Of a DNA stretch of 32,000 nt, positions 4,714 through 31,689 are shown piece by piece (position 1 is the first letter of the stretch; every line of letters starts with the position of its first letter). A program made the position numbers and the translations under genes. This DNA is from Sulfolobus acidocaldarius DSM 639 (GTDB lineage Archaea > Thermoproteota > Thermoprotei_A > Sulfolobales > Sulfolobaceae), in the NCBI RefSeq assembly GCF_000012285.1, contig NC_007181.1, forward strand, positions 390,001 to 422,000, given 5' to 3'. Under the pieces are notes generated by a model. It saw nothing but the letters and a program-made list of their open reading frames with translations, was not told the origin of the DNA and did no database searches.

Positions 4714-4869
4714 AAATATATTTATGCATGCATACATATATTAGCTTTCGCCTAAAGTAAACTACGGCCACTCTACTGTGTAGCAACAAAATTCTCTACT
4801 AGAGAGGGATTAATAGCAATACATATTTATCAACGTATTTATGAGAAAAGTTTTAGAGCTTATTATTAC

Positions 4870-4913
4870 CTGACTTCCTCTCCCGCCTTGAAAGGCGAGG
4901 CTTTCCTCATCTT
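4870..4913 (-). repeat. Hairpin unit of the IS200/IS605 (tnpB) end family (PATE/REP-like)
   Basis: ctgacttcctctcccgccttgaaaggcgaggctttcctcatctt. The LE side is followed by gtaa (TTAC on the unit strand). Confidence 0.7.
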
Positions 4914-5063
4914 GTAAACAGGCTAAAGGAAGCCTTTGCTCGATATACTGGTTAGAACTATTTCAGATCATTAAACGTCAATCTTAATTGGTAGTTTAAG
5001 AGTCGAATTTATTAATGAAATGTTTGGCCTACAATAAATTTATGAAGAGAATGTACAACTTAT

Positions 5064-5393
5064 TTATATCCAAACCTTTAACATAGCTTTAAATATCCCT
5101 TCTGAAATTTTATGATTTAGATTACGCCGCGGTAGTATAGCCCGGTCAAGTGTAATGCGCCGATAGTATGCGGGCCTTTCGAGCCCGTGACCCGGGTTCA
5201 AATCCCGGCCGCGGCACTTTAAGGTTATGAGGTTTCCCCCTAATACCCCCATATACGTTTCTATGATCTTTTCTAAAGGACCTATGTAATTGTGCCTTTC
5301 CTTACCATCTTGGCCCTTCTCTATATTATAGACATAATACTTTCCCTTAATCTCTTTAATATAGAATTTAGAACTAATGTAAAAGTTAGGCAT
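5064..5393 (-). pseudogene. N-terminal fragment Int(N) of a partitioned SSV-type integrase, reading antisense through the tRNA
   Basis: MPNFYISSKFYIKEIKGKYYVYNIEKGQDGKERHNYIGPLEKIIETYMG resembles the recalled SSV1 integrase N-terminus (RKGRYYVYK...ERYVGPLADVVESY). Beyond residue ~60 the ORF is just the antisense translation of the tRNA (RDLNPGHGLERP). A TATA-like tttataa at 5420-5426 sits ~27-33 nt upstream of the ATG. Confidence 0.65.
5126..5216 (+). tRNA. tRNA-Glu (anticodon UUC) with a 16-nt insert (putative non-canonical intron) in the D-arm
   Basis: The acceptor stem GCCGCGG/CCGCGGC is perfect. The T-arm is CCGGG-TTCAAAT-CCCGG. The anticodon arm is CGGGC-CTTTCGA-GCCCG, with anticodon TTC at 5178-5180. 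Removing 5150-5165 (gtgtaatgcgccgata) leaves a 75-nt cloverleaf. A TATA-like tttaaata lies ~35 nt upstream. Confidence 0.85.
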
Positions 5394-5531
5394 CCTATTA
5401 CGATATTTTTCACCAAAATTTATAAGCTATTCTAACTAGAGGATCTTCTCTAGAATTGAAACAACACGTAAAGGATTCCTCGTTAGTAATACTAATAAAA
5501 TGGTATTATCAACATTACAATTTTTATTAAG

Positions 5532-5688: not shown

Positions 5689-7623
5689 ATGTCTGCTAAA
5701 AATGATTCGGAAAGTAGGGTAAATAAAAGTTTCGATTCAACTCAACAACCTAACATATCCGAACAAGCTGGAAGTATTGCGCCTCAGCAAACTTCTGATT
5801 CATCTGCACCTCAGCAAGCTCAACAGAGTAATATTCCTTCACAGCCTTCTAATCAAGCCTCAGTTCAACAGGTGAGCCAGTCTCAACAACAAACTTACTA
5901 TATCGGAAAGGTCATAATTTCAAAAGATACTCCAGCGAAACATAACGAGTTTTGGGTATGGACAAAATCCCATATAGACATTGAGGTAGGCTCATCCTTC
6001 GTAATAGTTGAGGATCCTTCAGCTAGCAATAGAAAATATATTGTGGGTTTAGTAGTTGACTCAATGACAATGTCTACTTCTGAGAACGGTATTGCAGAAT
6101 ATTTTAGTAGTGGAGTTGGGGAACCTTTAATTAACCCGCCCATTGAACCAAGAGTGATTACTTTTTATAAGGTCAGAGTCATAAGTAGGGAACCTTCTAT
6201 AACTAAACCAGCAGAATCTAGAATGTTAGTGAGATTAGCTAGTCAAAATGACATAGATAGATTAAATTCCATCATAAAGCCTGAATATAGAGTTTTAGCA
6301 GGGTTTTTATACAATTTCACTAATCCATTAGATTCAAACAGCTGGATACCTATTTACTTTGACTCAACTTATCTTGCGGGTAAGCAAGGGGCTCATGTTA
6401 TGATAACAGGTAAAACAGGCTTAGCTACCAAAACCAGCTACGCGTTATTTTTAATACCTAATTTCCTACAACATGCCAAAATGAATAATAAAAGAGTCGC
6501 GGCAGTTCTTTTCAACGTAAAACAATGCGACCTATTTAACTTACACAATCTATTATTGTATAAAGATTGGGACTCATTATATAGTACAATCAAAAATTTG
6601 TTCGGTAATAGAACTGATCTTGCTGAATATAATATTGGAATGTGGAAAAGAATCAAAGAATTATATAATTTAAGTAAACCCAGTGATCTTATTCCAAAGG
6701 ATTCCAGTGGAAGACCTATGTTATATTATTATACTTATGCTGGTGATAATATATGCAGTTCTCAAATCTCTAATGCTGCGAATATACTTTTACAACAAAC
6801 AATTCCGACTTATTCCTATGGCCTAATGGACTTAGGAATACCTGAATTAATTACCGCTCTTTCGAACGGAAAATACGATACTATGAGTGAGCCACAAAGG
6901 GTCGCTATAAGTCTTTTAGCTAGGAAGGTAATTCCAGAATTGAAAGAAGAAATAAGCTTTGATAAATTATTAAATGATGCAAACAAGCAGCGTAGTATTT
7001 TTATGAAACTACTTACTAATAATGTAGATGAACGCACTGTTCCCGTTATAATAAGGTATCTAATAGATTTTGTAGGAACAAACAGAAATATAGGATTAGA
7101 ATTACAAAATGCTCATGGAAACCCAATAAAAGATACGAATATTCATGAAGGTATTAACATAATTCAGTTAAATGGCTTGTCCGACACAATGCAAAATATA
7201 GTGTTCAGCTCGGTACTGCGAACTTTAATGAACATTCAACAAGATCAAAATAATAATAGAAGATTCGACTATATCATCGTATTTGTAGATGAACTAAACA
7301 AGTTCGCTCCTAAAAGAGGCGAATCGCCTATTAAAGATCTTATAGTTGATATCGCAGCAAGAGCTAGAAGTCTAAATATAGGTTTGATCGGAGCGCAGCA
7401 GTTTGCGTCACGGATAGAAACACAGGTATATGGAAATGCGTCGACTTATGTAGTAGGAAATACAGATGCAGCAGAACTTAAAGAAGATGAATACAAAGCA
7501 TTTTCAGACTTTAAGGACATGATTTACCAATTACAGAAAGGCCAAATGGTCATTTATCAGCCGTCAACCTTTATCTCACCTATTAAGATAAGGTTTCCAG
7601 TAATTCCCTATGATGTAAGCTAA
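5689..7623 (+). CDS. HerA/DUF87-like (FtsK-HerA clade) ATPase with a Q/S-rich disordered N-terminus
   Basis: 644 aa. Walker B is IIVFVDELNKF. A P-loop-like ITGKTGLATKTS deviates from GxxxxGK[ST]. A barrel-like segment YIGKVIISKD...IVGLVVD lies N-terminal to the ATPase, as HerA HAS-barrels do. Residues 1-70 are S/Q/P-rich. Confidence 0.6.
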   Translation: MSAKNDSESRVNKSFDSTQQPNISEQAGSIAPQQTSDSSAPQQAQQSNIPSQPSNQASVQQVSQSQQQTYYIGKVIISKDTPAKHNEFWVWTKSHIDIEVGSSFVIVEDPSASNRKYIVGLVVDSMTMSTSENGIAEYFSSGVGEPLINPPIEPRVITFYKVRVISREPSITKPAESRMLVRLASQNDIDRLNSIIKPEYRVLAGFLYNFTNPLDSNSWIPIYFDSTYLAGKQGAHVMITGKTGLATKTSYALFLIPNFLQHAKMNNKRVAAVLFNVKQCDLFNLHNLLLYKDWDSLYSTIKNLFGNRTDLAEYNIGMWKRIKELYNLSKPSDLIPKDSSGRPMLYYYTYAGDNICSSQISNAANILLQQTIPTYSYGLMDLGIPELITALSNGKYDTMSEPQRVAISLLARKVIPELKEEISFDKLLNDANKQRSIFMKLLTNNVDERTVPVIIRYLIDFVGTNRNIGLELQNAHGNPIKDTNIHEGINIIQLNGLSDTMQNIVFSSVLRTLMNIQQDQNNNRRFDYIIVFVDELNKFAPKRGESPIKDLIVDIAARARSLNIGLIGAQQFASRIETQVYGNASTYVVGNTDAAELKEDEYKAFSDFKDMIYQLQKGQMVIYQPSTFISPIKIRFPVIPYDVS

Positions 7624-7637
7624 CATTAGGTGAAAGA

Positions 7638-9005
7638 ATGAGTGAGAATGAAAACGATCTGAAAGAATGGTTAAAGGGAAACCAAAGTGTTAAGCTCTCA
7701 GTTCAAGGATTTTCGGATGATGATCCCGAAGAAGAGATAGTAGGTACCGAAAACGTATCTTTAGATGACAGCGACTCCTTAAATCTTCAAATTCAGCTAA
7801 AATATCCTCTACCTCAAGCGACTAATAATGATCTAATATTTATCGATGGTACTAGTAGATATAGAGTGATAGGAAGTTTTAAGGCTAATAATGTCTTAGT
7901 TCCTATCGTATTCGGGAATATTATCGCGGGTGCAATGAGATTAGATGCTGGAAATAAAACATTAAGACCCTTAAAAGTGAAAATATTAAAAGTTGTTCTC
8001 TTCCCTAAGAAGACTATAGAAGACTACCAGTCAGCTATAATACCGCTACCGCCCAATATACCGATAATAGAAGATAATAGTTCTACGAAGTTCATGAATT
8101 TTAGTAATAATCTTGTTGATACATTTATACGAATTTCAGATATATCATATACACTTGGTGAAAATGAAAGCGGACAACACAGACAACTAATTTATAGAGA
8201 AGATTTGATTTCATCAGGGAAGATAAGACAAGTCGCCAGAAATAGAGTTAAAGAATTAATGAGGGTCTTAGAGTTATCATTATTATATGAATTAAGGCAG
8301 CTTTACAAAGACAGCCTAATTTTAATGGACGGTCCTATAGGTCCTTTAATTAAGTATGCTGGACTCGTAGATATTTATCTTAGAGAAGTAGTGAGGTTAA
8401 GAGATAATGACTCTAATAATATAGAGAAGGCATATGATCTGCTTCATAATGTTATAGGTGTAGTTAAGAAGGTGGTCAAAGTTCCTGTATCATTAATTGA
8501 TGCTATTTCTAGTGGTAATTTGCCTAAAATATATAGATGGAATAAAGTTATAGACGATGGTATAGACGCCGAAGGGAAGGAAGACTCCTATTTAACTAGT
8601 TATATACTTAGTGCTTTTTTAAAACTAAGAGAAGAGTTACAAAACGAGAACTTTCCCGCGTTCTCAAATTTATCTGGATTAATAAGAGTCGATATTCCTT
8701 TAGCATCTATCATAGATAAAAGTGAGTGGATTAGTTTCTTCAGCTACACTCAAATAAAGGATAGCGATGATAAGGGGAATATTATACTTACTGATTATGG
8801 TAGGCAAAAAATATACGACTTAGTTGTAAAAGGTGGCAAAAAACTAGAGGAGCTATTAAATATAGTATACAGTTTCAAATATCCGATACCAAGCTCCTCC
8901 CCATACAGAAATTTAGTAGAACTTTATCCAATAAAGGAAGTAGAAGACTGGATGAAATCTCATTTAATGAGCAAATATGAGATGGCATCATATGTATATT
9001 CTTAA
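7638..9005 (+). CDS. NurA-like nuclease domain protein
   Basis: 455 aa, beginning 14 nt after the ATPase stop. LIFIDGTSRY, LILMDGPIGPLI and VIGVVKKVVKV resemble the recalled NurA motifs (xDGS, xDGSL, GvsK). Confidence 0.5.
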   Translation: MSENENDLKEWLKGNQSVKLSVQGFSDDDPEEEIVGTENVSLDDSDSLNLQIQLKYPLPQATNNDLIFIDGTSRYRVIGSFKANNVLVPIVFGNIIAGAMRLDAGNKTLRPLKVKILKVVLFPKKTIEDYQSAIIPLPPNIPIIEDNSSTKFMNFSNNLVDTFIRISDISYTLGENESGQHRQLIYREDLISSGKIRQVARNRVKELMRVLELSLLYELRQLYKDSLILMDGPIGPLIKYAGLVDIYLREVVRLRDNDSNNIEKAYDLLHNVIGVVKKVVKVPVSLIDAISSGNLPKIYRWNKVIDDGIDAEGKEDSYLTSYILSAFLKLREELQNENFPAFSNLSGLIRVDIPLASIIDKSEWISFFSYTQIKDSDDKGNIILTDYGRQKIYDLVVKGGKKLEELLNIVYSFKYPIPSSSPYRNLVELYPIKEVEDWMKSHLMSKYEMASYVYS

Positions 9006-13916: not shown

Positions 13917-14216
13917 ATGGAAATCAAGATTAATGAACAGCTCTTCGAGTTGTTATCAACAGAAATGAAGTTCGTCTTGTACGTAGGGCTGTTGAAAGAG
14001 CCCACCTTAAGCGAGCTTAGGGATGCTACTAGGGCGAGCTGGAGTACAGTGCACAACATTGTCCCTAAGCTACAAGGCTTGGGCCTGATAGAGGTCCAGG
14101 AAGAGAAGACGAGGGTAAAGAGCGTAAAGAAAATAGCCAAACTAACAGACAAGGGCCGCATGGTCTTTGAGAAGATTCTAGAGTTAAACCAGCTCCTCTC
14201 AGAAGACAAAGCATGA
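13917..14216 (+). CDS. Small wHTH regulator, paralog D
   Basis: 99 aa. TLSELRDATRASWSTVHNIVPKLQGLGLIEVQEEK...KLTDKGRMVFEKI. The antisense ORF 13865..14209 is low-complexity and rejected. Confidence 0.7.
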   Translation: MEIKINEQLFELLSTEMKFVLYVGLLKEPTLSELRDATRASWSTVHNIVPKLQGLGLIEVQEEKTRVKSVKKIAKLTDKGRMVFEKILELNQLLSEDKA

Positions 14217-14225
14217 ATAGGCGTC

Positions 14226-14513
14226 TTACGAGCTCGATAAAGACTTCGAGGCTTTTTTCATTTCGACGATCCTTTCAATCTCAACTAATAATTGAGCGAC
14301 CTCTTTCCCGCTCTCTGTCAATATTACGAACCTGCGGCGTGGGAACGAGTGCTCTCTTTCTTCATTAACGAGGCCTAACTTAATCAAATGTTCTAATGAG
14401 GGGTTAAGCACAGAAGTGGACGAGTGTGAGGCGTCAACCAGCTCTCTAGCTGTCATCTTGTCCTTCTTTAATAATGCCTTGAGAATCCTCTGCTCTACTT
14501 CTGACAGCTCCAT
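14226..14513 (-). CDS. Small wHTH regulator, paralog E
   Basis: 95 aa. LSEVEQRILKALLKKDKMTARELVD...LIKLGLVNEEREHSFPRRRFVILTESGKEVA. It is a close paralog of 17482..17775. Confidence 0.7.
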   Translation of the reverse strand: MELSEVEQRILKALLKKDKMTARELVDASHSSTSVLNPSLEHLIKLGLVNEEREHSFPRRRFVILTESGKEVAQLLVEIERIVEMKKASKSLSSS

Positions 14514-14609: not shown

Positions 14610-14711
14610 TTAGGACTGAAGCAACTCATTGATCATTAATATGTGCTTTATGATGTCTACTCCTTTCTTGGTGACCTTAACTAGTTTCTTCTCTGTCCCT
14701 ACCGAAGTTTT
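14610..14711 (-). pseudogene. C-terminal part of a split wHTH gene (paralog F)
   Basis: Translates as KTSVGTEKKLVKVTKKGVDIIKHILMINELLQS*. It joins in frame to 17430..17242. Confidence 0.75.
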
Positions 14712-14762
14712 GGTGACAAAAAGACGACAAGCCTCGCCCTTTTAAGGCGGGGAGGAGGTCAG
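14712..14762 (+). repeat. Hairpin unit (PATE/REP-like) forming the left end of the composite block
   Basis: ggtgacaaaaagacgacaagcctcgcccttttaaggcggggaggaggtcag. Confidence 0.7.
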
Positions 14763-14865
14763 CTTGAATGTCAATAAAATGACAGGGATGACAGTGTAGG
14801 GACAAACGGAAAGGACGAAGTTAAGGAAACAGAAACAATCAAAATCCTTTAATTGAATATAAGAT

Positions 14866-15324
14866 GTGATAGTAATGGTAGAACAAATAATTGAGTTTCC
14901 GGACGTCATGAAACAACACGAGACATATACATTACCAGATGTCATCACGGATCCTGACGGCAAGCCAATAATGTACCCTAAGGAAGAGATAGGTAAAAAC
15001 CCAATAGTGGTCAATAGGAAGAACTGGAGGCTATTTGCAAACTTCGACCTTGTACGGAGTAAAGGCAAAGAGATAGTGGTCAGAATCAAGACGACCGGGC
15101 AATTAGTGAGAATACGTGACATGGATGCGGCGACTGTAATGTACTACGTCGAAAGGATAAAGCCTGGTGCAACAGTGCATGAGGCTATAACTTATGATAT
15201 CCAAAAAACTATCGAGGAAACTGGTGATTTTGAAGAAGACGGCGAGTTTATGTTCTATATGTGGCAGTTGTTCGTCGTTCTCTCATACCTCATCCAATAC
15301 GGCGTCCTCATCCTCGTCAAGTGA
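14866..15324 (+). CDS. Hypothetical protein with a hydrophobic C-terminal tail (passenger gene)
   Basis: 152 aa with normal charged composition and C-terminus FMFYMWQLFVVLSYLIQYGVLILVK. The antisense ORF 14742..15122 is rejected. Confidence 0.55.
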   Translation: MIVMVEQIIEFPDVMKQHETYTLPDVITDPDGKPIMYPKEEIGKNPIVVNRKNWRLFANFDLVRSKGKEIVVRIKTTGQLVRIRDMDAATVMYYVERIKPGATVHEAITYDIQKTIEETGDFEEDGEFMFYMWQLFVVLSYLIQYGVLILVK

Positions 15325-15326
15325 TT

Positions 15327-15494
15327 TCATCCTTTTTTTACTCTCTTATAACATAGCATAACGTCACCATCCTTATTCTCTACGCTTAGGACAAACTCGT
15401 CGTTTTCAGAGATACCTAATGCCCTCACTACATCTATTGGCACATTTAAGTAATAGGTCACGTGGTTTCCACTTTTGTATACTCTGATTTTCAT
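15327..15494 (-). CDS. AbrB/SpoVT-like small DNA-binding protein (55 aa), not in the ORF track
   Basis: Hand translation gives MKIRVYKSGNHVTYYLNVPIDVVRALGISENDEFVLSVENKDGDVMLCYKRVKKG. The pattern (xxVxIPxxxxxxLGIxxGDxV) is typical of swapped-hairpin AbrB/MazE-like folds. Confidence 0.6.
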   Translation of the reverse strand: MKIRVYKSGNHVTYYLNVPIDVVRALGISENDEFVLSVENKDGDVMLCYKRVKKG

Positions 15495-15502
15495 AAGTCA
15501 AA

Positions 15503-15560
15503 TGTGTACACAAAATTATATAAGTTTTATCACCGAAAGCTTTTTATTTGTGTACACAAA
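15503..15560. promoter_or_regulatory. Divergent promoter with two copies of the palindrome TGTGTACACA
   Basis: The cores are at 15503-15512 and 15549-15558, and the second extends to the perfect 14-mer TTTGTGTACACAAA (15547-15560). ttatataa (15516-15523) lies ~25 nt upstream of the minus-strand ATG at 15494. tttttattt (15541-15549) lies upstream of the ATG at 15583. Confidence 0.55.
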
Positions 15561-15582
15561 GTAGAATTTTGGTGAACACGGA

Positions 15583-15888
15583 ATGTCCGTAGAGTTCAAC
15601 TTAACCCTTAACCAAGTTAAGGTAAAGGGAAGTGTCTTTTCTCTAAACCCCTACTCTTTTGAAGCGATAAAGAGGTGGTATGACAAGTTCCTAAAGTGGT
15701 GTGAGAACTATGACGTCATGACGTACTGCCAGAAGGACATGGAAGAGGAGGTAGAGTACTTAGCTGAGGCTTTCAGACTGTTAGCCCCTAAGAGCTTAGA
15801 GGAGGCTGAAGAATATTTCGCCGTCTTGGAAAGGGCTTACGACTCTACTGAGGGTAAGATAAAGGAAGTGTTTGTTAGGGCTATGTAA
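15583..15888 (+). CDS. Hypothetical acidic protein (101 aa, passenger gene)
   Basis: ORF with normal composition. Its stop lies inside the conserved gtaaaggtttttt motif that marks the tnpB element's left end. Confidence 0.55.
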   Translation: MSVEFNLTLNQVKVKGSVFSLNPYSFEAIKRWYDKFLKWCENYDVMTYCQKDMEEEVEYLAEAFRLLAPKSLEEAEEYFAVLERAYDSTEGKIKEVFVRAM

Positions 15889-17224
15889 AGGTTTTTTGAG
15901 GAGTAATGGGCGAAGGAAAGTGAAGAGGAGTAATATAGTTAGACTAGTTGTCTCGAAGGACGTGGGCAAGAAGTTGAGGGAGCTAGCAACATGGACTGCC
16001 AAGTGTTGGAACGAGGTTAACTGGTTGAGGATGCAACAGTTCAAGGAAGGGAAGATGGTGGACTTTAACGACACTGAGAAAGTAGTGTACGCTAAATACA
16101 AGGAGTACTTAAAGGTAAATGCCCAACAAGTGTGTAGGAAGAACGCCGAGGCATGGCGTTCCTTCTTCTCGCTAATGAAGGACAAGAAAGACGGTAAGTT
16201 GCCTAGCTGGTTTAAGCCTAGACCACCAGGGTATTGGAAGGATAAACGTGGTAGCTACAAACTGTTAATACTAATCAGAAATGATAGGTATACAGTAGAC
16301 GAGAACGCTAGAACAATTTATCTGAAGGACTTTGGGTTAACACTTCACTTCAAAGGCAAGCTTAAGTGGAAGGGCAAACAAGGAAGGTTAGAGATATTCC
16401 ATAATGGACTACATTGGTGTGCATCTATACCAGTTGAGGTGGAGGTTAACGCTAAGCCCAAAGGTAATGGTATAGCTGGAGTAGATTTAGGTATTGTTAA
16501 CTTGGCTACTGTAGTGTTCGATGATAGCTCGTGGGTGTTGTTCAAAGGTGGTTCTGTACTATCAGAGTATGAGAACTACTCTAGAAAGATTGCAATTACG
16601 CAGAAAAAGTTGTCATTGCATAAGCAAGAGAGGAGTAAGAGGTTGAAGGCGTTGTTTCTAAAGAGGAAGAGGTTCTTAAAACACGTGTTGAACTCTATGG
16701 CTAGGAAGACTGTAGAGACTGCTTACGAGAAAGGAGTATCGATAATTAAGGTCGGGTATCCCAAGGAAATATCAAAACACCACGGGAATAAGCTCACTGT
16801 AAACTTCTGGAACTACAACTACGTTATTAGGAGGATGCAAGAGGTCTCAGAGGAGTACGGCATCAAAGTCGAAACGGTGAACGAGGCTTATACTTCAATT
16901 GTGTGTTCCCTATGTGGGGAAGCCCATGAAAATGGGCGTATACACCGTGGTTTGTTTAAGTGTCCCCACATAGGGAAAGTCGTTAACGCAGACTTGAACG
17001 GGGCGATAAACATCCTACATATCCCCAAGTCCCGAGGAGGGTGGAGTGAGGGTAACTCCACCAAAGGGATAGGGGTAAAATGGCTGAAGACCCAGCCAGT
17101 GGTCTACCACTGGACGAGCGGAGCGGGGTGGGTGTTTAAATCACCCACTAGCTGTGAAGCGATGGGAATGAAGGTGGTGAACCACAGACCTGTGAACCGC
17201 CCTAGGGGAACCCTCACCCTTTAG
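15872..17224 (+). CDS. tnpB: TnpB (IS200/IS605-family RuvC-like RNA-guided nuclease), apparently intact
   Basis: GVDLGIVNLATV (RuvC-I Asp), VETVNEAYTS (Glu), the zinc-finger region CSLCG...CPH, and NADLNGAINIL (RuvC-III Asp). The real start may be GTG 15920. The last ~70 codons read through the RE/omega-RNA region. Confidence 0.85.
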   Translation: MLGLCKGFLRSNGRRKVKRSNIVRLVVSKDVGKKLRELATWTAKCWNEVNWLRMQQFKEGKMVDFNDTEKVVYAKYKEYLKVNAQQVCRKNAEAWRSFFSLMKDKKDGKLPSWFKPRPPGYWKDKRGSYKLLILIRNDRYTVDENARTIYLKDFGLTLHFKGKLKWKGKQGRLEIFHNGLHWCASIPVEVEVNAKPKGNGIAGVDLGIVNLATVVFDDSSWVLFKGGSVLSEYENYSRKIAITQKKLSLHKQERSKRLKALFLKRKRFLKHVLNSMARKTVETAYEKGVSIIKVGYPKEISKHHGNKLTVNFWNYNYVIRRMQEVSEEYGIKVETVNEAYTSIVCSLCGEAHENGRIHRGLFKCPHIGKVVNADLNGAINILHIPKSRGGWSEGNSTKGIGVKWLKTQPVVYHWTSGAGWVFKSPTSCEAMGMKVVNHRPVNRPRGTLTL

Positions 17225-17241
17225 GGCGGGGAGGAGGTCAG
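16995..17241 (+). ncRNA. Predicted omega (re)RNA scaffold of TnpB, overlapping the tnpB 3' end and the RE hairpin
   Basis: Placed by analogy with characterised TnpB systems. The same ~230 nt are conserved in the tnpB-less derivative at 28875-29110, which supports a non-protein function. The 5' limit is approximate. Confidence 0.45.
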
Positions 17242-17430
17242 CTCCACACTAACTAACCCCAACCCCTCTAACTGTCTGACGTATTTTGTTATTGTGCTAG
17301 CACTCATCCCGCCACTCTCTTTAATTAGCTGCGAGACCGTGGCTTCGCCAAGCGAATATATGAGCAGTAATAGCCTCAACGGGGGTGAGAGTAACAAGTC
17401 GAGGTTCTTGCCAATTTTGGTTCGTTCCAT
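17242..17430 (-). pseudogene. N-terminal part of the split wHTH gene (paralog F)
   Basis: MERTKIGKNLDLLLSPPLRLLLLIYSLGEATVSQLIKESGGMSASTITKYVRQLEGLGLVSVE. The track ORF (17221..17430) then reads into the RE hairpin and ends in LTSSPP*. Confidence 0.75.
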
Positions 17431-17481: not shown

Positions 17482-17775
17482 TTAATTTTCTAGGAGGCTA
17501 TATATCTCGTCTAGCTTCTTCGCAACTACCTTTCCCTTTCCTGTAAGATATAGGAAGCGCCTCCTTGGGAACACTTCTTCCCTCCTCTCTTCTACAAGTC
17601 CAACCTCGATTAATTCACGTAGAGCGGAAGTGACAGAATTTGGACTAGAACGTGTCTTCTCAATGATATCGCTCAGGGCGGTCCCGTCGTTTTTCAGCAG
17701 AAACCTTAGAACCCTCTGTTCTATCTCACTTAGTTCCTTATGCCTTATACTCATTTCAATTACTAATCTACTCAT
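17482..17775 (-). CDS. Small wHTH regulator, paralog G
   Basis: 97 aa. LSEIEQRVLRFLLKNDGTALSDIIE...LIEVGLVEERREEVFPRRRFLYLTGKGKVVA. Confidence 0.7.
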   Translation of the reverse strand: MSRLVIEMSIRHKELSEIEQRVLRFLLKNDGTALSDIIEKTRSSPNSVTSALRELIEVGLVEERREEVFPRRRFLYLTGKGKVVAKKLDEIYSLLEN

Positions 17776-19345: not shown

Positions 19346-19514
19346 CTTTTCACTATATCCTTGCTCCTCTATACCCTTAAAAATTAGCATTTTTGGCTTT
19401 AAACACTTCTCGCATTGGGGTTAATGGGTTACTTAATTTACAGGCTTACCCAAGGCAAGCTTTGATAATTTCAGACAGCCCATCTATAAGTCTACGTCCT
19501 TAAATTTATGTTAC

Positions 19515-19557
19515 AAAGTGACGAAAGCCTCGTCCTTTAGGGCGGGGAGGAAGTCAG
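19515..19557 (+). repeat. Hairpin unit (PATE/REP-like)
   Basis: aaagtgacgaaagcctcgtcctttagggcggggaggaagtcag, preceded by ttac (19511-19514). It lies between convergent genes. Confidence 0.7.
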
Positions 19558-21378: not shown

Positions 21379-22086
21379 ATGTCTTTAACAGTAGAACTTA
21401 GGAATTCTATTGAGCAAGTTTACTTGTTTAAGCCAAGTGGAGTACAATTACGGTCATTGGGGATTCCTCAAGACTATGTAAAAAAGGTAGATGAAGAGAT
21501 AAAGAAGTTACTTGACGATGAGGAGTTAAAGAACGGCACGTTAGAAGTGATGTCTGGTCTGTTTAGCTATTTAACGACACTAGATATTGACGATCTTACT
21601 AAGATAGAGGACTTCATGAAAAAATACCCAGCGAAATTACAACAGCTTGATAATCTTTATAAATTATTAGAGAACCTCCCTGCTGAGGAGTATAAGGAGT
21701 ATTGGCTAGGCAAATATTATGGGCTACTGGACAAGCTTGTGAAGGCGAAAGAGGAGTTCATGAGGACCATTGAAGAGAGGGAGGGGGTTAACACCATAAT
21801 GGAGTTCTACTACAAGGTCTTCCTAGGACTGTTAACTGACCTAGTAGAGAACATTAGGCGTTACGAGACAGTAGAAAGGTTAAAGGCTAGAGATGACGCA
21901 AAGCTGAGAGCTTTAATGTCAACGACAAATACTCTCATATTTGTTCTTTCTTACCCCATAATTGCATACTTGGAGGGGGATAAATTAGATTATGAAATCC
22001 TAACTTACCTGATAACCATTTTTGCTAAACCTTCCACAATTAAGGATAAGTACAGTGAGATTATAGGTGAGGCACTTTTTGGATAA
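21379..22086 (+). CDS. All-helical hypothetical protein (235 aa), upstream partner of the PIN-like gene
   Basis: The ORF overlaps the downstream gene by 20 nt. Confidence 0.55.
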   Translation: MSLTVELRNSIEQVYLFKPSGVQLRSLGIPQDYVKKVDEEIKKLLDDEELKNGTLEVMSGLFSYLTTLDIDDLTKIEDFMKKYPAKLQQLDNLYKLLENLPAEEYKEYWLGKYYGLLDKLVKAKEEFMRTIEEREGVNTIMEFYYKVFLGLLTDLVENIRRYETVERLKARDDAKLRALMSTTNTLIFVLSYPIIAYLEGDKLDYEILTYLITIFAKPSTIKDKYSEIIGEALFG

Positions 22087-22927
22087 ATGTTTTGCATTAG
22101 ACACAAATATACTCCTTGATTACTTCTATGACTTTATGGATAAGAATAGGCATCTACAAGCCGAAAAACTAGTCAAAAGTTTGAAGGGTAGGTCCTCCGA
22201 GATTTACATACCCAATACAGTGAAGACTGAAGTTCTTGAAATAACAGCTGGGTCCTTTGCAATATTAAGAAATTCACTTATATTGGAAATGCAGAAGATT
22301 AATTGGGATAACCTCTCTATAGAAGAACGAGATAAAGCACTAGATAGGATTAGGGATAACTTTGATGAGCTGTTTGAGAATACACGAAAGAAGCTTTATC
22401 CTGATACTACTCCAGGCATCAGGTTGTTCCTCGCAAAGAGGCTTTTCTCTAAACTTCGTAATGAGCTTATAAATAGAAGGCTGTCAGAAATTAAAGATTT
22501 TGTACTTACAGAGAATAGGATAAAAGATTCAGAAGAATATTTAATTCGCAGAATATCTAATGAGTTTTCATTATTTCCTAGTTTAATATCTATCAGTAGT
22601 TCTTCTGAAGAGCTTATGAAGTTGAATATATTTATGCGTGCGTTTGGAAAAGTAAAAAACATAGGCCTTATTGACTCGACACTCTTTTCTGAAATTTTTC
22701 TGGCGTTAAAGGGTGGTGTTTGTGAAAGTATAACTCTTATAAGCAATGACTATGACTTAGCCACAATAAAGGAATCTCTCTTAAATAACTTAAATGATTT
22801 CATAAAATCTAGCAGTAACAACGATCATAGGAATTACGCTGAAGAGATGAGGGACCTAATTCATTCTAATTTGAAAGTTGTAAAGCTAGAAGAAATATTA
22901 AATAAGCTGGCCTCATCACCTACATAA
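22067..22927 (+). CDS. PIN-like nuclease domain protein with a ~130-aa internal insertion (GTG start)
   Basis: The N-terminus has FALDTNILLDY (first Asp) and TEVLEI (Glu). The C-terminus has GLIDSTLF and LISNDYDLA (third and fourth Asp). Confidence 0.55.
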   Translation: MRHFLDKCFALDTNILLDYFYDFMDKNRHLQAEKLVKSLKGRSSEIYIPNTVKTEVLEITAGSFAILRNSLILEMQKINWDNLSIEERDKALDRIRDNFDELFENTRKKLYPDTTPGIRLFLAKRLFSKLRNELINRRLSEIKDFVLTENRIKDSEEYLIRRISNEFSLFPSLISISSSSEELMKLNIFMRAFGKVKNIGLIDSTLFSEIFLALKGGVCESITLISNDYDLATIKESLLNNLNDFIKSSSNNDHRNYAEEMRDLIHSNLKVVKLEEILNKLASSPT

Positions 22928-22965
22928 CTGACCTCCTCCCCACCCTGAGAGGTCTCTTTCATTTC
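22928..22965 (-). repeat. Degenerate hairpin unit directly after the PIN-like stop codon
   Basis: ctgacctcctccccaccctgagaggtctctttcatttc. Confidence 0.5.
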
Positions 22966-23892: not shown

Positions 23893-24879
23893 CTATTTTT
23901 CTTTTTCCTCAGCTTGGTTGGTCTCTAACAGAGATCTGACCTTTTCTTCTACCTCAGAAATATATTCGTCAAACTCGTCCGACTTATAGAGCTTACTTAT
24001 TTCTTTTTTAAGCTCTACCAAGTTTTCTAATATTTCCTTCTGATGATCTTTTACATCTTTCAAATACTCCCAATCTTCATCAGTTCTACCCTTAGTAAAC
24101 CTCTTTATGTAAGCGTTTGTCAAAAACGCTGTATAAAGAAGGTAATCAAACAACTTTTGATTACCAAGGTCTAGCATGCTCAGTATTTGGTCTAGTAGGT
24201 AAGGTTCATCTATGAGTGTAGAGATTATCAGTTTTTGCTCATCAGACAATTGCTTACAGTATCCCTCAGCCTCCTCTGGTGGTGAAAGTAAGCACAATCT
24301 CATCAAGTTAAGTATTCTATCGTTTAGATTCCTCAGACTGAAACTATTTACTAAATCCTTTCTAATATTAAGCAATTCGTCATATCTTCTTTTCTCAGGT
24401 GGTTTAGTTATATATTCCTTTACTCTTCTATATAACCTTCCTAGTTCTCGTTGTTTTAGCTCAAACATCAGCTTGCTAGTCGTAGATAGAAGTTCAGCTA
24501 TATGGGACTTCCCTATAGGGTCATGTTTAAGTTTTTCCGCAATTTTCTCTTCATTTACAGCGTCCTTTACTAAGTTGGTAAAGCTGTTTATGACATTCTG
24601 AACTAGCCTAGGGAACCTTAAGTGGGCTTTATTACTAACAGAGATAATAGAGACGGGGAGTAGTATTAATACCCCATAGCCGGCCAAAAAAGCCTTAGAG
24701 AAATTCTCATAGGAAGACGCTATGTCCTCTATCTTTTTTTCCTCCAAAGCTTCAACATCTGTTATCTCGCTGGCCTTGGTTTTAAGGTACTCATAAGTGG
24801 CTATCGCACCTTCTGCGTTCTTAATTGCATCCCTAATATAACTGTAAAACAGAGACTTCTTCCTGCTAGGCTGACTCAG
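23893..24879 (-). CDS. Helical protein with one TM segment, cassette 1 partner; the canonical start is lost
   Basis: The track ORF starts at TTG 24747. Homology to the paralog 25699..26682 continues in frame up to 24879, where CTG replaces the paralog's TTG start. The TM-like segment is FLAGYGVLILLPVSIISV. Confidence 0.55.
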   Translation of the reverse strand: MSQPSRKKSLFYSYIRDAIKNAEGAIATYEYLKTKASEITDVEALEEKKIEDIASSYENFSKAFLAGYGVLILLPVSIISVSNKAHLRFPRLVQNVINSFTNLVKDAVNEEKIAEKLKHDPIGKSHIAELLSTTSKLMFELKQRELGRLYRRVKEYITKPPEKRRYDELLNIRKDLVNSFSLRNLNDRILNLMRLCLLSPPEEAEGYCKQLSDEQKLIISTLIDEPYLLDQILSMLDLGNQKLFDYLLYTAFLTNAYIKRFTKGRTDEDWEYLKDVKDHQKEILENLVELKKEISKLYKSDEFDEYISEVEEKVRSLLETNQAEEKEK

Positions 24880-24881
24880 CC

Positions 24882-25328
24882 TTATTTCCCTCTCAATATC
24901 TTATCCCGTATAATGGAGTAACTGGTATACTCAGGATAACGATAATAGACGTATTTTAAAATCTCGCTCCTACTTTTCCTTACCCACTCCCTAAAGAAGT
25001 CCAATACTTTTTTGTCTACTCCCTTTATTTCCATGTCTTTAGCTAATACATATTTCCTCCTCACTCCTACCACAAAGCCAGTTATCATATCCTCCACCGG
25101 GTCTTCCTCCACGCTCACTATTCCTGCGTCAATAAGCTTGTTTATTTTATTTTGCAGATACTCAGAGTAAGGGCCAAAATAAAAAGGCTCAAATCCTAAT
25201 CCTAAATCAACACCTCCTTCCTTTTCTAACAAAAAGAATATCTTCTGGAGCTTTGTAGCAGTTACCTCAGCATTTTCCTCCTTTGCCACCTTAAGGAGGG
25301 CAAGGATGTAATTGTCAACAGTGTCCAT
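24882..25328 (-). CDS. Panacea/SocA (DUF4065)-like putative antitoxin, cassette 1
   Basis: TATKLQKIFFLLEKEGG...FEPFYFGPYSEYL resembles the recalled DUF4065 pattern (KLQKLLYy...f.aw.yGPv). The start is set at MDTVDN, as in the paralog. Confidence 0.55.
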   Translation of the reverse strand: MDTVDNYILALLKVAKEENAEVTATKLQKIFFLLEKEGGVDLGLGFEPFYFGPYSEYLQNKINKLIDAGIVSVEEDPVEDMITGFVVGVRRKYVLAKDMEIKGVDKKVLDFFREWVRKSRSEILKYVYYRYPEYTSYSIIRDKILRGK

Positions 25329-25472
25329 AAATGCCACCAACTAAAATATAGTTTACACTTTAAGCATTTATTTTTTAATACGGGGTCTTCATCGAAACTA
25401 AATAGAAAACTATGGAGTTAATTTAACACCTCATCCAAATCCTTTTTATACACTCCCAATGAGTTTACACAT

Positions 25473-25625
25473 ATGAAGATTGAGAAGAGAGAGGGTGAAG
25501 AGGAAGTAGACATAATCTTTGAGAGCAAGGAAGATCTAGAGGAGTTTAGACAACTACTTATTAAGAAGTATTATGAGCTTAATCCCGACCGCAAACCTCC
25601 TTATGGGACCCAATCCTCCAGATAA
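25473..25625 (+). CDS. Small acidic ORF (50 aa) divergent from cassette 1, not in the ORF track
   Basis: MKIEKREGEEEVDIIFESKEDLEEFRQLLIKKYYELNPDRKPPYGTQSSR. It is conserved with 27271..27429. Confidence 0.45.
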   Translation: MKIEKREGEEEVDIIFESKEDLEEFRQLLIKKYYELNPDRKPPYGTQSSR

Positions 25626-25642
25626 TCATGAACAGTTTTCGT

Positions 25643-25690
25643 CTGGCTTCCTGCCCGCCCTGAGGGGCGAGGCTTGTCTCATCTTTGTCA
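25643..25690 (-). repeat. Hairpin unit (PATE/REP-like) at the junction of the two cassettes
   Basis: ctggcttcctgcccgccctgaggggcgaggcttgtctcatctttgtca. Confidence 0.65.
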
Positions 25691-25698
25691 GAAGCTTC

Positions 25699-26682
25699 CT
25701 ATTTTTCCTCATCTTGGTCAGTCTTTAGCAAAGACCTAGCCTTTTCCTCAATATCAGCTAAGACTTCGTCAAACTCATCGTTGTACGCTATTTCATATAA
25801 GGCATCACTAACGTGTTTTAGGTTATCAAGCATCTCTTTTTGGTGATCCCTAAGTTCTTCTAAGTATTTTTCGTCCACATCTTCCCTACCTTCGGAATAC
25901 GCAGCAATCCCGCTTGCGGCATGCGCTAAATATGCCGTATATAGTAGAGTGTCGAGGAGCTCATATACGCCTAAATCCATTATGCTTAGAATTTGATCCA
26001 AAAGGTAAGGTTTATCTAACAAAATTTTCAAAACTTTCTTATCCTTTTCGCTCAGTGCCTGACAGTATTCAGCAGACTCTTCAGGATAGGACAGTAAGCA
26101 TTCTTCCAATAGGGAAGTTACCTCATTGCTTAACTCTCTAAGCGTAAATGAAACTGTAATTTTCTTTCTTAGGTCTTGAAGTTCTTTATAATTTCTATCT
26201 TTGGGAGGCTTCTCTATGAATCTATTTATATCGTCAAACAGTTTCTTTAACTCGGTCTGCCCCAGTTCATTTAACAACTCGCTAGAGGCTCTAAGTAGTT
26301 CCACTATCTTAGATCCTCCTACAGGGTCGTGGCCCAGCTTTTTCTTTATGACCTTAGGCGAAGTTCCCTGCCTAATTAACTCTCTAAAAGAGTTCTCTAT
26401 TCTCTGAAGATGTCTAGGAAACCTCAGATTAGCATTTGAATTCACAGAAAATATTGCAACTGGTATAAGTATAATAGTGCCATAAGTAGAAAGCAAAGCC
26501 TTTGAGAAGGCCTCATAGGCCCTTGCTATACTAAACATCTTTTTCTCTTCGAGAGAACGGACATCCTTTACCTCTTCAGCCTTGTTTTGTAACCTATCAT
26601 ACGCCGCTTGGGCCTCTTCAAAAAAACCTATGCCATCTCTAACAAAGTTGTTAAAGATCGACCTCTTCTTACGCGTTCCCAA
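25699..26682 (-). CDS. Helical protein with one TM segment, cassette 2 partner (TTG start)
   Basis: 327 aa with LLSTYGTIILIPVAIFSV. It overlaps the upstream Panacea-like gene by 14 nt. Confidence 0.6.
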   Translation of the reverse strand: MGTRKKRSIFNNFVRDGIGFFEEAQAAYDRLQNKAEEVKDVRSLEEKKMFSIARAYEAFSKALLSTYGTIILIPVAIFSVNSNANLRFPRHLQRIENSFRELIRQGTSPKVIKKKLGHDPVGGSKIVELLRASSELLNELGQTELKKLFDDINRFIEKPPKDRNYKELQDLRKKITVSFTLRELSNEVTSLLEECLLSYPEESAEYCQALSEKDKKVLKILLDKPYLLDQILSIMDLGVYELLDTLLYTAYLAHAASGIAAYSEGREDVDEKYLEELRDHQKEMLDNLKHVSDALYEIAYNDEFDEVLADIEEKARSLLKTDQDEEK

Positions 26683-27130
26683 TAAGTTTTCCCCTAATCA
26701 CCTTATCCCTTATTACAGAGTATCTAGTGTAGTCAGGGTAACGTCTGTAAACGTAAGTTAGTATTTCCTGTCTGGGCTTGGATACCCACTCCTTGAAGAA
26801 CTGTATGATTTCATTCCTTACATTATCCACTTTGACGTCATTTGCTAGTACATACTTCCTCTTTATGCCTATGGTGAGCCCTGATATGACGTCTTTGACC
26901 TCTTCTTCCTCAACGTCGACCATACCGAGCTCAATCAGACTGTTAATACGGTCTTGGAGTAGCTTTGAGTATGGTCCAAACAACCATGGTTCAAAGTTTA
27001 GACCTAGATTAACTCCTCCCTCCTTTTCTAACAAAAAGAATATCTTCTGGAGCTTTGTAGCAGTTACCTCAGCATTTTCCTCCTTTGCCACCTTAAGGAG
27101 GGCAAGGATGTAATTGTCAACAGTGTCCAT
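26669..27130 (-). CDS. Panacea/SocA (DUF4065)-like putative antitoxin, cassette 2
   Basis: 153 aa. TATKLQKIFFLLEKEGG...FEPWLFGPYSKLL. Confidence 0.55.
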   Translation of the reverse strand: MDTVDNYILALLKVAKEENAEVTATKLQKIFFLLEKEGGVNLGLNFEPWLFGPYSKLLQDRINSLIELGMVDVEEEEVKDVISGLTIGIKRKYVLANDVKVDNVRNEIIQFFKEWVSKPRQEILTYVYRRYPDYTRYSVIRDKVIRGKLIGNA

Positions 27131-27270
27131 GAGTATATCACCAACTAGATGTTTTCATTTTAAGTATTTATTTAAAGATGGAGTCTTCCTCAAAACTAAA
27201 TAGAAAACTATGGAGTTAATTTAACACCTCATCCAAATCCTTTTTATCCACTCCCAATGAGTTTACATAT

Positions 27271-27429
27271 ATGAAAATAGTAAAGAGAGAAGGTGAAGAG
27301 GAAACTGACATAATCTTTGAGAGCAAGGAGGAACTTGACAGATTTTTTGACGAGCTTATTAAGGAAGCTGAGGAAAGGGAAAAGGCTAGAAGTAAACCTT
27401 CTCATGAGGATAATTCGTTAAAGTTTTAA
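27271..27429 (+). CDS. Small acidic ORF (52 aa) divergent from cassette 2, not in the ORF track
   Basis: MKIVKREGEEETDIIFESKEELDRFFDELIKEAEEREKARSKPSHEDNSLKF. Confidence 0.45.
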   Translation: MKIVKREGEEETDIIFESKEELDRFFDELIKEAEEREKARSKPSHEDNSLKF

Positions 27430-27610: not shown

Positions 27611-29241
<1,631 letters not shown>

Positions 29242-31550: not shown

Positions 31551-31590
<40 letters not shown>

Positions 31591-31593
<3 letters not shown>

Positions 31594-31689
31594 GTAATAG
31601 CAAGTAACGTTGCACTTTTACTCATAATCTCTCTGGTTATCGGTATAACAATAGTAGAATTGTTGAGAAGCATTTACGGAAAACTGTGA
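31591..31689 (+). pseudogene. C-terminal fragment of a paralog of the 30208..30777 membrane protein
   Basis: SVIASNVALLLIISLVIGITIVELLRSIYGKL* aligns with ...TIASNLMYLVAVSIVIAVAIIEFLRSIYGKI*. There is no matching upstream coding sequence left of the hairpin. Confidence 0.65.

Follow-up and report, generated by a model that had tools for sequence, protein, structure and literature searches.

Insertion sequences (IS) of the IS200/IS605 family are the simplest transposons known, and it is they that encode TnpB, from which Cas12 descends. To our knowledge, they were until recently thought never to carry cargo. Here we analyzed a window of 32,000 nt from Sulfolobus acidocaldarius DSM 639 (NC_007181.1, positions 390,001 to 422,000 of the forward strand; all coordinates below are positions in this window unless another sequence is named), in which a block of DNA at 14718-17241, harbouring an intact tnpB and three other genes, splits a small winged helix-turn-helix (wHTH) gene of the MarR family.

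IS608 from Helicobacter pylori and ISDra2 from Deinococcus radiodurans have subterminal hairpins, lack terminal inverted repeats and generate no target duplication, all of which holds for the block as well, and the DNA between their left end (LE) and right end (RE) can be moved by TnpA acting in trans (PMC5027513, PMC8612924). As for IS608, the insertion lies 3' of a fixed tetranucleotide, which is TTAC for IS608 and TGAC or TTAC here. The likeness extends to the tnpB-only members of the IS200/IS605 family, with an OrfB_IS605 plus zinc-ribbon tnpB, a predicted structured RNA across the gene's 3' end and the RE, and a Y1 tnpA in autonomous relatives. However, the block differs from these tnpB-only elements by the 1.13 kb and three genes found between the left-end hairpin and tnpB, by the loss of the LE foot and hairpin that belonged to tnpB itself, by the lack of tnpA in the window, by its single fixed copy and by a Gly instead of the canonical Glu at the RuvC-II position.

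IS200/IS605 elements were not previously known to carry cargo, and rare cases were reported by Altae-Tran et al. in 2023 (PMC10691335); a first-pass annotation of this DNA had described such composites as rarely documented. The cargo elements of that study (IS200/IS605/IS607) also have HTH genes and genes without known domains between their ends, beside tnpB. In contrast to these conserved branch associations (e.g. Ser-3, with a serine recombinase), the cargo of the block is a one-off mosaic of plasmid backbone pieces in a Y1-type family, and the left end comes from a separate solo unit. The ribbon-helix-helix (RHH)/MazE-TnpB systems, proposed as toxin-antitoxin systems in the same study, are similar in that they too combine an archaeal tnpB whose catalytic site is rearranged with a nearby gene of AbrB/MazE type, and relatives of the TnpB studied here have an RHH-like open reading frame (ORF) directly upstream. 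Here, however, the AbrB-like gene is on the opposite strand with a 101-aa gene in between, and a paralogous AbrB/104-aa pair is found elsewhere without tnpB. Unlike the RIIIr-4-type proteins (RuvC-III Asp changed to His, no zinc finger, no ends), NADLN, CxxC...C, the RE and an LE remnant are all kept. The block is not a member of the RHH/MazE-TnpB class. Finally, Tn10-type composite transposons likewise enclose cargo between ends from two separate IS-type elements, but there is no DDE transposase, inverted repeat or target duplication here, and the arrangement of one LE and one RE is that of single-strand peel-and-paste.

A tnpB element splits a MarR-family gene at TGAC

We classify the block at 14718-17241 as a non-autonomous member of the IS200/IS605 family, of the tnpB-only (IS1341) type, whose ends enclose 1.13 kb of extra plasmid DNA. 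Its assignment to IS200/IS605 follows from its TnpB, from the way its ends are built, from its target and from the lack of a duplication. The interrupted gene is on the minus strand. Its 5' fragment (17242..17430, 63 codons) is colinear with residues 1-63 of WP_011229441, encoded by the conjugative plasmid pNOB8, and its 3' fragment (14610..14717, 35 codons plus the stop, starting with VTKTSVGTEKK) continues this colinearity over residues 64-97. The 5' fragment is annotated as a 69-aa MarR-family protein because its frame continues into the RE of the block. That a wHTH gene is split here, and returns in frame once the block is removed, had been proposed by the first-pass annotation and is borne out by the orthologs: when the DNA of 17430..17242 joined to 14717..14610 was aligned to the pNOB8 and pMGB1 genes, the junction was gap-free. 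The restored protein reads ...VSVE/VTKTSVG... at this junction (slashes mark junctions throughout), and the pNOB8 ortholog has the sequence ...GLIDVEVTRTNVGTEKK.

The same alignment sets the limits of the insert. The block had been placed at 14712-17241 (2.53 kb), the minus strand of 14711..14610 encoding KTSVGTEKK...LLQS and the stop. Its right boundary was correct, whereas its left boundary was 6 nt off. Since the alignment has no gap across the junction, 14712-14717 (ggtgac; reverse complement GTC ACC, coding for Val-Thr) is gene sequence and not insert. The insert is thus 14718-17241, that is 2,524 bp. On the plus strand the empty site reads GGTGAC/CTC, within the reconstructed sequence GAAGTTTTGGTGAC/CTCCACAC, and the homologous position of pNOB8 reads CGTTAC/TTC. 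The TGAC tetranucleotide (14714..14717, plus strand) directly 5' of the left end is the predicted transposon-associated motif (TAM); pNOB8 has TTAC there. The insert is flanked by ...TTTTGGTGAC/ on the left and /CTCCACAC on the right, without any target-site duplication, as had been noticed before.

Both ends belong to one hairpin family

The left end of the block is a solo hairpin unit of 45 nt (14718..14762, plus strand), made of an LE foot (14718-14729), a hairpin (~14730-14752, loop TTTTAA) and an RE tail, AGGAGGTCAG (14753-14762). At the right end (17209-17241) stands the RE that belongs to the intact tnpB, with a hairpin at 17211-17231 and the tail AGGAGGTCAG at 17232-17241. For comparison, 22 related tnpB loci were taken from thermophilic archaeal genomes and metagenome-assembled genomes. 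The left terminus, GGTGAC/AAAAAGACGACAAG followed by its hairpin, matches the LE of the family, TGAC/AAAAAGAACGACAAG and a hairpin, which in full reads TGAC/AAAAAGAACGACAAG-CCTCGCCCC...GGGGCGGGG-TAAAGCTTTTAAAT, with TGAC at the same place in 9 of 12 loci. The family RE, ...GGGCGGGGAGGAGGTCAG, is nearly invariant, being present in each of the eight relatives whose 3' end was read; in one of these the last base is C rather than G. The block termini, AAAAAG... and ...GGTCAG, are not inverted repeats, and the hairpins are subterminal as in the relatives. The earlier description of the left end as a complete short hairpin unit and of the right end as the RE of tnpB therefore agrees with the ends of the family, the unit being 14718-14762.

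The window contains further members of this hairpin family. Allowing ≤3 mismatches, the window has 5 matches to the pattern GCCTCGCCC-N4-GGGCGGGGAGGAGGTCAG, where 0.00 would be expected, and four kinds of feature contain it. One is the RE of the intact tnpB, ...AACCCTCACCCTTTAGGGCGGGGAGGAGGTCAG, which terminates at 17241; the same RE recurs in a minus-strand deletion derivative of 367 bp (29241..28875), a miniature inverted-repeat transposable element (MITE) that has an LE at 29241 and the tnpB 3' end with the RE at 29094-28875. Between the RE portion of this MITE and the 3'-terminal part of the intact tnpB the identity is 93-94%, and between the LE of the MITE and that of the unit at the left end of the block it is 90% over 39 nt. 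A second copy of tnpB (27611-28874, plus strand) is decayed, with a disrupted frame and an intact LE that reads TTAC/AAAATGAGG...hairpin...TAAAGGTTTTTT; it ends at 28874, where it abuts the RE of the inverted 367-bp derivative. In the two LEs at 27611 (plus) and 29241 (minus), the hairpin is followed by TAAAGGTTTTT.

In addition, solo hairpin units of 43-45 nt, each with an LE foot, one hairpin and an RE tail, were found at 4903 (within 4868-4918, minus), 19511-19557 (plus), 25643-25690 (minus) and 31551-31599 (minus), along with a degenerate one of the same hairpin family near 22926-22960 (minus). Each LE or solo unit in the window is directly preceded by TGAC or TTAC. Palindrome-associated transposable elements (PATEs) and MITEs, of which the 367-bp derivative is the example in this window, are gene-less, keep LE and RE and sit at the family target; in contrast to two-hairpin PATEs, the LE foot and RE tail of a 43-45-nt unit share one hairpin. 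Their loops differ (TTTA vs TTTTAA or TTTCAA), and the point at which LE-type sequence changes into RE-type sequence varies from one unit to another. Judged by these sequences, the units look like independent collapses of an LE with an RE ("solo hairpins") and not like copies of one MITE. Because the crossover points differ among them, this suggests that recombination at hairpins is frequent in this DNA. A BLAST search of plasmids with a 49-nt unit returned mostly noise.

TnpB is intact and its own left end is lost

The tnpB gene (15920..17224, plus strand) is intact and encodes 434 aa from a GTG start, with matches to OrfB_IS605 (PF01385, 7.6e-29) and to the Cas12f1-like TNB domain (PF07282, 5.8e-17) and to known structures of TnpB and Cas12f. 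This TnpB and its relatives have in common the zinc-finger cysteines and the motifs GVDLG, VGYPKE and NADLNGAINI. In all of them the RuvC-II position is a Gly with a Glu nearby (VGYPKE), and the RuvC-III Asp is kept. By its sequence, this Gly corresponds to the "rearranged" catalytic sites that Altae-Tran et al. (PMC10691335) described in TnpBs and argued to be still active. With its motifs and its omegaRNA-like structure conserved, tnpB looks functional. An omegaRNA-like scaffold of 62 predicted pairs extends across the 3' end of tnpB and the RE (17002..17241, plus strand). Among 10 sequences compared over their last 240 nt, 10 of these 62 pairs showed compensatory changes, a conservation that is consistent with an omegaRNA scaffold; no Rfam family matched the structure. 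From the known architecture of TnpB and omegaRNA (PMC8612924), the flank directly 3' of the RE, CTCCACACTAACTAAC (17242..17257, plus strand), is predicted to be the guide portion.

Upstream of tnpB, only a remnant of its own left end is left (15886..15919, plus strand), namely the promoter-like TAAAGGTTTTTT and then a tnpA relic, GAGGAGTAATGGGCGAAGG, with the LE foot and hairpin absent. The relic corresponds to the 3' end of tnpA (15899-15919, ...EEQWGKG): relatives with an intact tnpA finish in ...IEEQWGKG, ATTGAGGAGCAGTGGGG, just before tnpB. In agreement with the earlier remark that this end keeps only TAAAGGTTTTTT, the stretch 15840-15900 was unfolded, at -1.1 kcal/mol vs -7.2 kcal/mol for the LE at 27611. 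Folding with DNA parameters is weak on these hairpins owing to G-T pairs and was applied only to the missing hairpin of this internal site. The sequence TTAGGGCTATG, upstream of TAAAGG, was first read as an arm of a decayed LE hairpin, and it fits the 3' end of the 104-aa paralog described below at least equally well. Because the LE hairpin of tnpB itself is missing, only the distal unit at 14718 can act as left end.

The slot between the LE and tnpB is variable in the family. Two relatives (L013 and L017) have an intact Y1 tnpA there and a third (L021) has a frameshifted one, while in seven others (L011, L015, L016, L019, L020, L022 and L025), whose TnpBs are 60-67% identical and whose upstream LE hairpin was found in all but L022, the place of tnpA is occupied by a conserved ORF of ~50 aa that looks RHH-like (...PIRIGKDTKEELKRLKIHPRETYDDVIKRLIEE...). 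Since relatives carry either tnpA or this RHH-like gene at that position, the slot can hold other genes.

The passenger genes are pieces of plasmid backbone

Three passenger genes had been reported between the left-end unit and tnpB. All three are present, but they are not exotic cargo, as they consist of a pNOB8-family gene and a paralogous AbrB/104-aa-type gene pair, pieces of Sulfolobales plasmid backbones. Pfam and PHROGs searches of these genes returned nothing other than a weak AbrB/MazE match. The product of the first gene (14866..15324, plus strand) is 152 aa long, or 149 aa when counted from the ATG at 14875, and ends in a hydrophobic C-terminal tail; it had no Pfam or PHROG match and belongs to a gene family that is conserved in pNOB8-type conjugative plasmids. 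It is 41-42% identical to pNOB8 WP_011229472 and 31-33% identical to a homolog on pHGQ25, and homologs are found on six other Sulfolobus plasmids.

The other two genes form a divergent pair. One encodes an AbrB/MazE-like protein of 55 aa (15327..15494, minus strand; PF04014, E = 7.8e-4, below the gathering score) and the other an acidic protein of 101 aa (15583..15888, plus strand), for which we found no Pfam or PHROG family and, with an AlphaFold2 (AF2) model of predicted local distance difference test (pLDDT) score 81, no PDB fold match better than E = 0.7. A paralogous divergent pair, AbrB2 (58 aa) and a 104-aa protein, is located at a second locus of S. acidocaldarius (7211-7781 of the contig L036; CP046615.1, ~1.529 Mb), where it heads an operon ending in a 684-aa protein, beside an SSV-type integrase fragment in an integrated element. 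This second locus has neither tnpB nor a hairpin unit. The two pairs share ~74% DNA identity from the AbrB stop (15334) to ~15872. The AbrB-like protein is identical to AbrB2 at 33 of 55 positions with a ratio of nonsynonymous to synonymous substitution rates (dN/dS) of 0.10, and the 101-aa protein to its paralog at 78 of 100 positions with a dN/dS of 0.22, and because of these ratios we regard both as real genes. The region between them (15495..15582) carries two copies of the palindrome-containing TGTGTACACAAA, and its counterpart at the second locus also has TGTACA palindromes. From this resemblance, these palindromes are likely operators or promoters, the predicted binding sites of the AbrB-like protein.

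Homology of the 101-aa gene to its paralog can be traced up to the stop codon with two small in-frame gaps. Its TAA stop (15886-15888) provides the first three bases of the LE remnant TAAAGG, and because the homology reaches this shared TAA, the junction between the passenger genes and the tnpB remnant shows a GTAA microhomology. A further junction of the block reads GGAGGTCAG/CTTGAATGTCAAT. The interior is a mosaic. A segment with the 152-aa gene (14763-15333) and a segment with the AbrB-like and 101-aa genes (15334-15885) come from two plasmid backbones that are unrelated to each other and meet at 15333/15334.

The block is fixed within an integrated plasmid remnant

The block-encoded proteins were found identical on dozens of S. 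acidocaldarius contigs, with neighbours that were always unchanged (e.g. CP046615.1, ~620-641 kb, and LPRL01000001.1). For these exact-protein look-ups, made with the 101-aa, 149-aa and TnpB proteins, the longest 24 contigs were read per look-up. Genes shared with pNOB8 are scattered over the window, and synteny with this plasmid is too mosaic for testing the flanks of the block. A tRNA-Ser(CGA) gene (5126-5217, plus strand; ARAGORN, and Rfam tRNA at 33.7 bits) lies in the window, and the DNA beside it (~5149-5426) matches pNOB8 22078-22138, which adjoins the pNOB8 integrase; this DNA is probably the attachment border of an integrated plasmid. Because of the adjoining tRNA-Ser(CGA), the scattered pNOB8 genes and the constant context, we conclude that the window is a decayed, integrated pNOB8-type plasmid, fixed in the species. 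Remnants and duplications from more than one plasmid are present.

A Logan contig (L007, SRR8699907_604) was considered as an independent context for the AbrB-101aa-tnpB arrangement and was rejected. Over its left 1,150 nt this contig has 99% identity to the second locus, and that part is joined to the tnpB of the window at 100% identity, the switch between loci falling within the long near-identical stretch of the 101/104-aa genes, where the contig encodes a hybrid protein of 100 aa (P0002). It is an assembly chimera or a recombinant, and not evidence of mobility.

We also observed features of the window and of related plasmids away from the block. A tandem duplication of ~1.8 kb (23893-25690 vs 25699-27340, 70-89% identical) comprises genes of 284/327, 152/153 and 50/52 aa. 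At ≤2 mismatches, 9 copies of the motif TTAACTGGGGAGTT are present in the window vs 0.43 expected (5532, 11731, 13419, 13486, 13794, 20775, 21150, 23769 and 31010), mostly between genes and often as inverted pairs. It was found also in L036 and in intergenic DNA of the plasmid pHGQ25, and these plasmids may use it as an operator or promoter. On pHGQ25 (CP152369.1; 239-306 of our contig L001), the RE of a TnpB element of a different lineage (…GGGCGGGGAGGAAGTCAG) abuts a truncated ArsR/wHTH gene, whose annotated ORF continues into the RE and which is the second small wHTH regulator on a Sulfolobus plasmid to be interrupted by a tnpB element.

How the block may have formed

An LE at TGAC, an RE on the opposite side, no duplication and a restored gene are the signature expected of one peel-and-paste insertion. 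We therefore considered that the whole block was mobilised in one step, as a composite, by means of the LE of the solo unit and the RE of tnpB, a reading to which we give an even chance. The order of events that we infer, including movement of the block as a single unit, would be as follows. An IS of ~1.39 kb would have been left without its own LE foot and hairpin, and the GTAA microhomology would fit a deletion across the hairpin. The 45-nt solo unit ~1.1 kb upstream would then have provided a replacement left end. A Y1 TnpA acting in trans, from an earlier host or a co-resident element, would have cut 3' of TGAC at the unit and after ...GGAGGAGGTCAG at the RE, so that the top strand would have left as a single-stranded circle whose RE-LE junction would read GGTCAG/AAAAAGACG. 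Pasting of this circle 3' of TGAC in the MarR-like wHTH gene of a pNOB8-type plasmid would have brought with it the 152-aa gene as well as the AbrB-like/101-aa pair. Integration of the plasmid at tRNA-Ser and its fixation in S. acidocaldarius would have followed, leaving the block as a fossil. In addition, TnpB with its predicted omegaRNA would recognise TGAC followed by CTCCACACTAAC..., which is exactly the empty wHTH site, and any excision of the whole block would be re-filled through TnpB homing.

Several observations weigh against this composite transposition. Joining 14718-14752 to 15886 onward yields a perfect LE and IS, and the truncation of tnpB stops exactly at the 3' base of the missing hairpin. 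Through the MITE at 29241-28875, the LE subtype of the unit is linked to this very tnpB (the 90% and 93-94% identities given above), recombination at hairpins seems frequent in this DNA, and the mosaic interior is unlike a co-inherited cargo module. S. acidocaldarius is reported to have very few IS elements (PMC5554439) and none that is active (PMC13584746). In line with the earlier claim, no tnpA was detectable in the window (tblastn with the TnpA of the family, best E = 0.076; the rest of the genome was not searched). The first-pass annotation had also called for other copies of the block and for uninterrupted alleles. All contigs read in the look-ups showed the same context and none a second copy, which makes the block a single fixed copy; filled/empty polymorphism, or the block at two or more sites, was not found among them either. 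As for the empty site, no close uninterrupted allele was found, the only one being the ortholog at 59% identity: a search for homologs of the reconstructed wHTH protein returned only the truncated 69-aa protein, and the exact empty-site 22-mer was absent from viral and metagenome contigs. The 22-mer spanning the junction of unit and cargo was absent from viral contigs, the 101-aa protein had no relatives in metagenome contigs, and no donor site of the block was found. Thus, of the earlier proposal of peel-and-paste with the LE of an upstream unit, the genuine ends, the TGAC target, the absent duplication and the restored gene stand, and movement of the block as one unit has the even chance given above.

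Part of the same evidence would fit an origin in which no cargo was ever transposed. A simple IS or a solo unit would already have sat at TGAC, and 1,133 bp (14753-15885), comprising the RE tail, the 152-aa gene and the AbrB/101-aa pair, would have entered later between the LE hairpin and TAAAGG, either by recombination, template switching or gene conversion between LE and RE hairpins, or by cointegration with another replicon followed by internal deletions. We hold such an acquisition in place to be a plausible but less-than-even prospect. It would explain why 14718-14752 and 15886 onward make up a complete LE, with foot, hairpin and TAAAGGTTTTTT, and why this LE and the tnpB 3' end are both linked to one and the same MITE. 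The insert also starts with an RE tail, as if it had once stood to the right of the RE of another element, and at its right junction it shares a GTAA microhomology with the 104-aa paralog around the stop codon of the latter. The varied changeover points of the solo units (TTTA vs TTTTAA/TTTCAA) point to repeated recombination at the level of hairpins, and material from several plasmids, some of it duplicated, was at hand in the window. However, later entry needs recombination over only ~17-33 nt of homology or a two-step circle-and-integration pathway, no donor with an RE followed by CTTGAATG... was found in the window or in any fetched locus, and the outcome has every appearance of one canonical insertion, a reading that is simpler. 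Because a second copy, a donor site and a close empty allele are all lacking, movement as a single unit and later entry are not separable. A functional but immobilised module of AbrB-like gene, 101-aa gene and tnpB, in which an AbrB-controlled divergent promoter would drive tnpB and the ends would be incidental, as in the archaeal RHH/MazE-TnpB toxin-antitoxin-like systems, is quite improbable in our view. The intact TnpB does have a rearranged RuvC-II site (Gly), archaeal TnpBs with such sites are found downstream of AbrB/MazE or RHH genes (PMC10691335), and close TnpB relatives have the 50-aa RHH-like ORF directly upstream, inside the LE. Moreover, the stop of the 101-aa gene is 31 nt from the tnpB start, the LE hairpin of tnpB is gone, and both the AbrB-like and 101-aa genes are under purifying selection. 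Yet the AbrB/104-aa pair at the second locus heads a plasmid replication-type operon without tnpB or hairpin, and because of this we take the linkage of the AbrB/101-aa pair with tnpB as a junction rather than as a co-evolved system. The AbrB-like gene is also divergent and separated from tnpB instead of being directly upstream and co-directional, the RuvC-III Asp and the zinc finger are kept, unlike in the published RIIIr-4/MazE branch, and the RE, omegaRNA scaffold and promoter-like TAAAGGTTTTTT are retained as in mobile copies.

Finally, the two wHTH fragments could derive from different paralogs joined by recombination between hairpin repeats, with nothing inserted into one gene. Several wHTH paralogs are nearby (13917-14216, 14226-14513 and 17482-17775) and direct hairpin repeats flank the block, but the fragments point to a single gene. 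The 63-codon fragment matched residues 1-63 of WP_011229441 best (40 of 63 identical, score 213, next best 83), and the 35-codon fragment matched residues 64-97 best (score 109, at most 64 for the window paralogs). As both are colinear with this one protein, and as the DNA alignment runs without a gap over the junction in two orthologs, the joining of different paralogs, which the first-pass annotation had raised as a possible refutation, is hardly credible.

Discussion

The block at 14718-17241 would be a further and structurally different example of cargo in IS200/IS605 elements and is a rare case in which extra genes are naturally enclosed by their ends. With one fixed, fossil copy and no active IS elements in the genome, it serves as a useful illustration and not as evidence of an active cargo transposon. 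The TGAC/TTAC target and the definition of LE and RE provide a predicted TAM and a scaffold boundary for this thermophilic TnpB family.

A natural case of this kind would show how IS200/IS605 elements can begin to capture genes, with TnpB homing (TGAC plus flank) guarding the package. A broader possibility, which we consider doubtful, is that in these archaeal plasmids LE and RE hairpins are portable recombination sites, whose collapse leaves solo hairpins of 43-45 nt, and that solo hairpins may serve as replacement left ends, whereby otherwise immobile tnpB elements would gain neighbouring genes and TnpB homing would protect the package. If true, a minimal insertion sequence could in this way turn naturally into an RNA-guided mobile element that carries genes.

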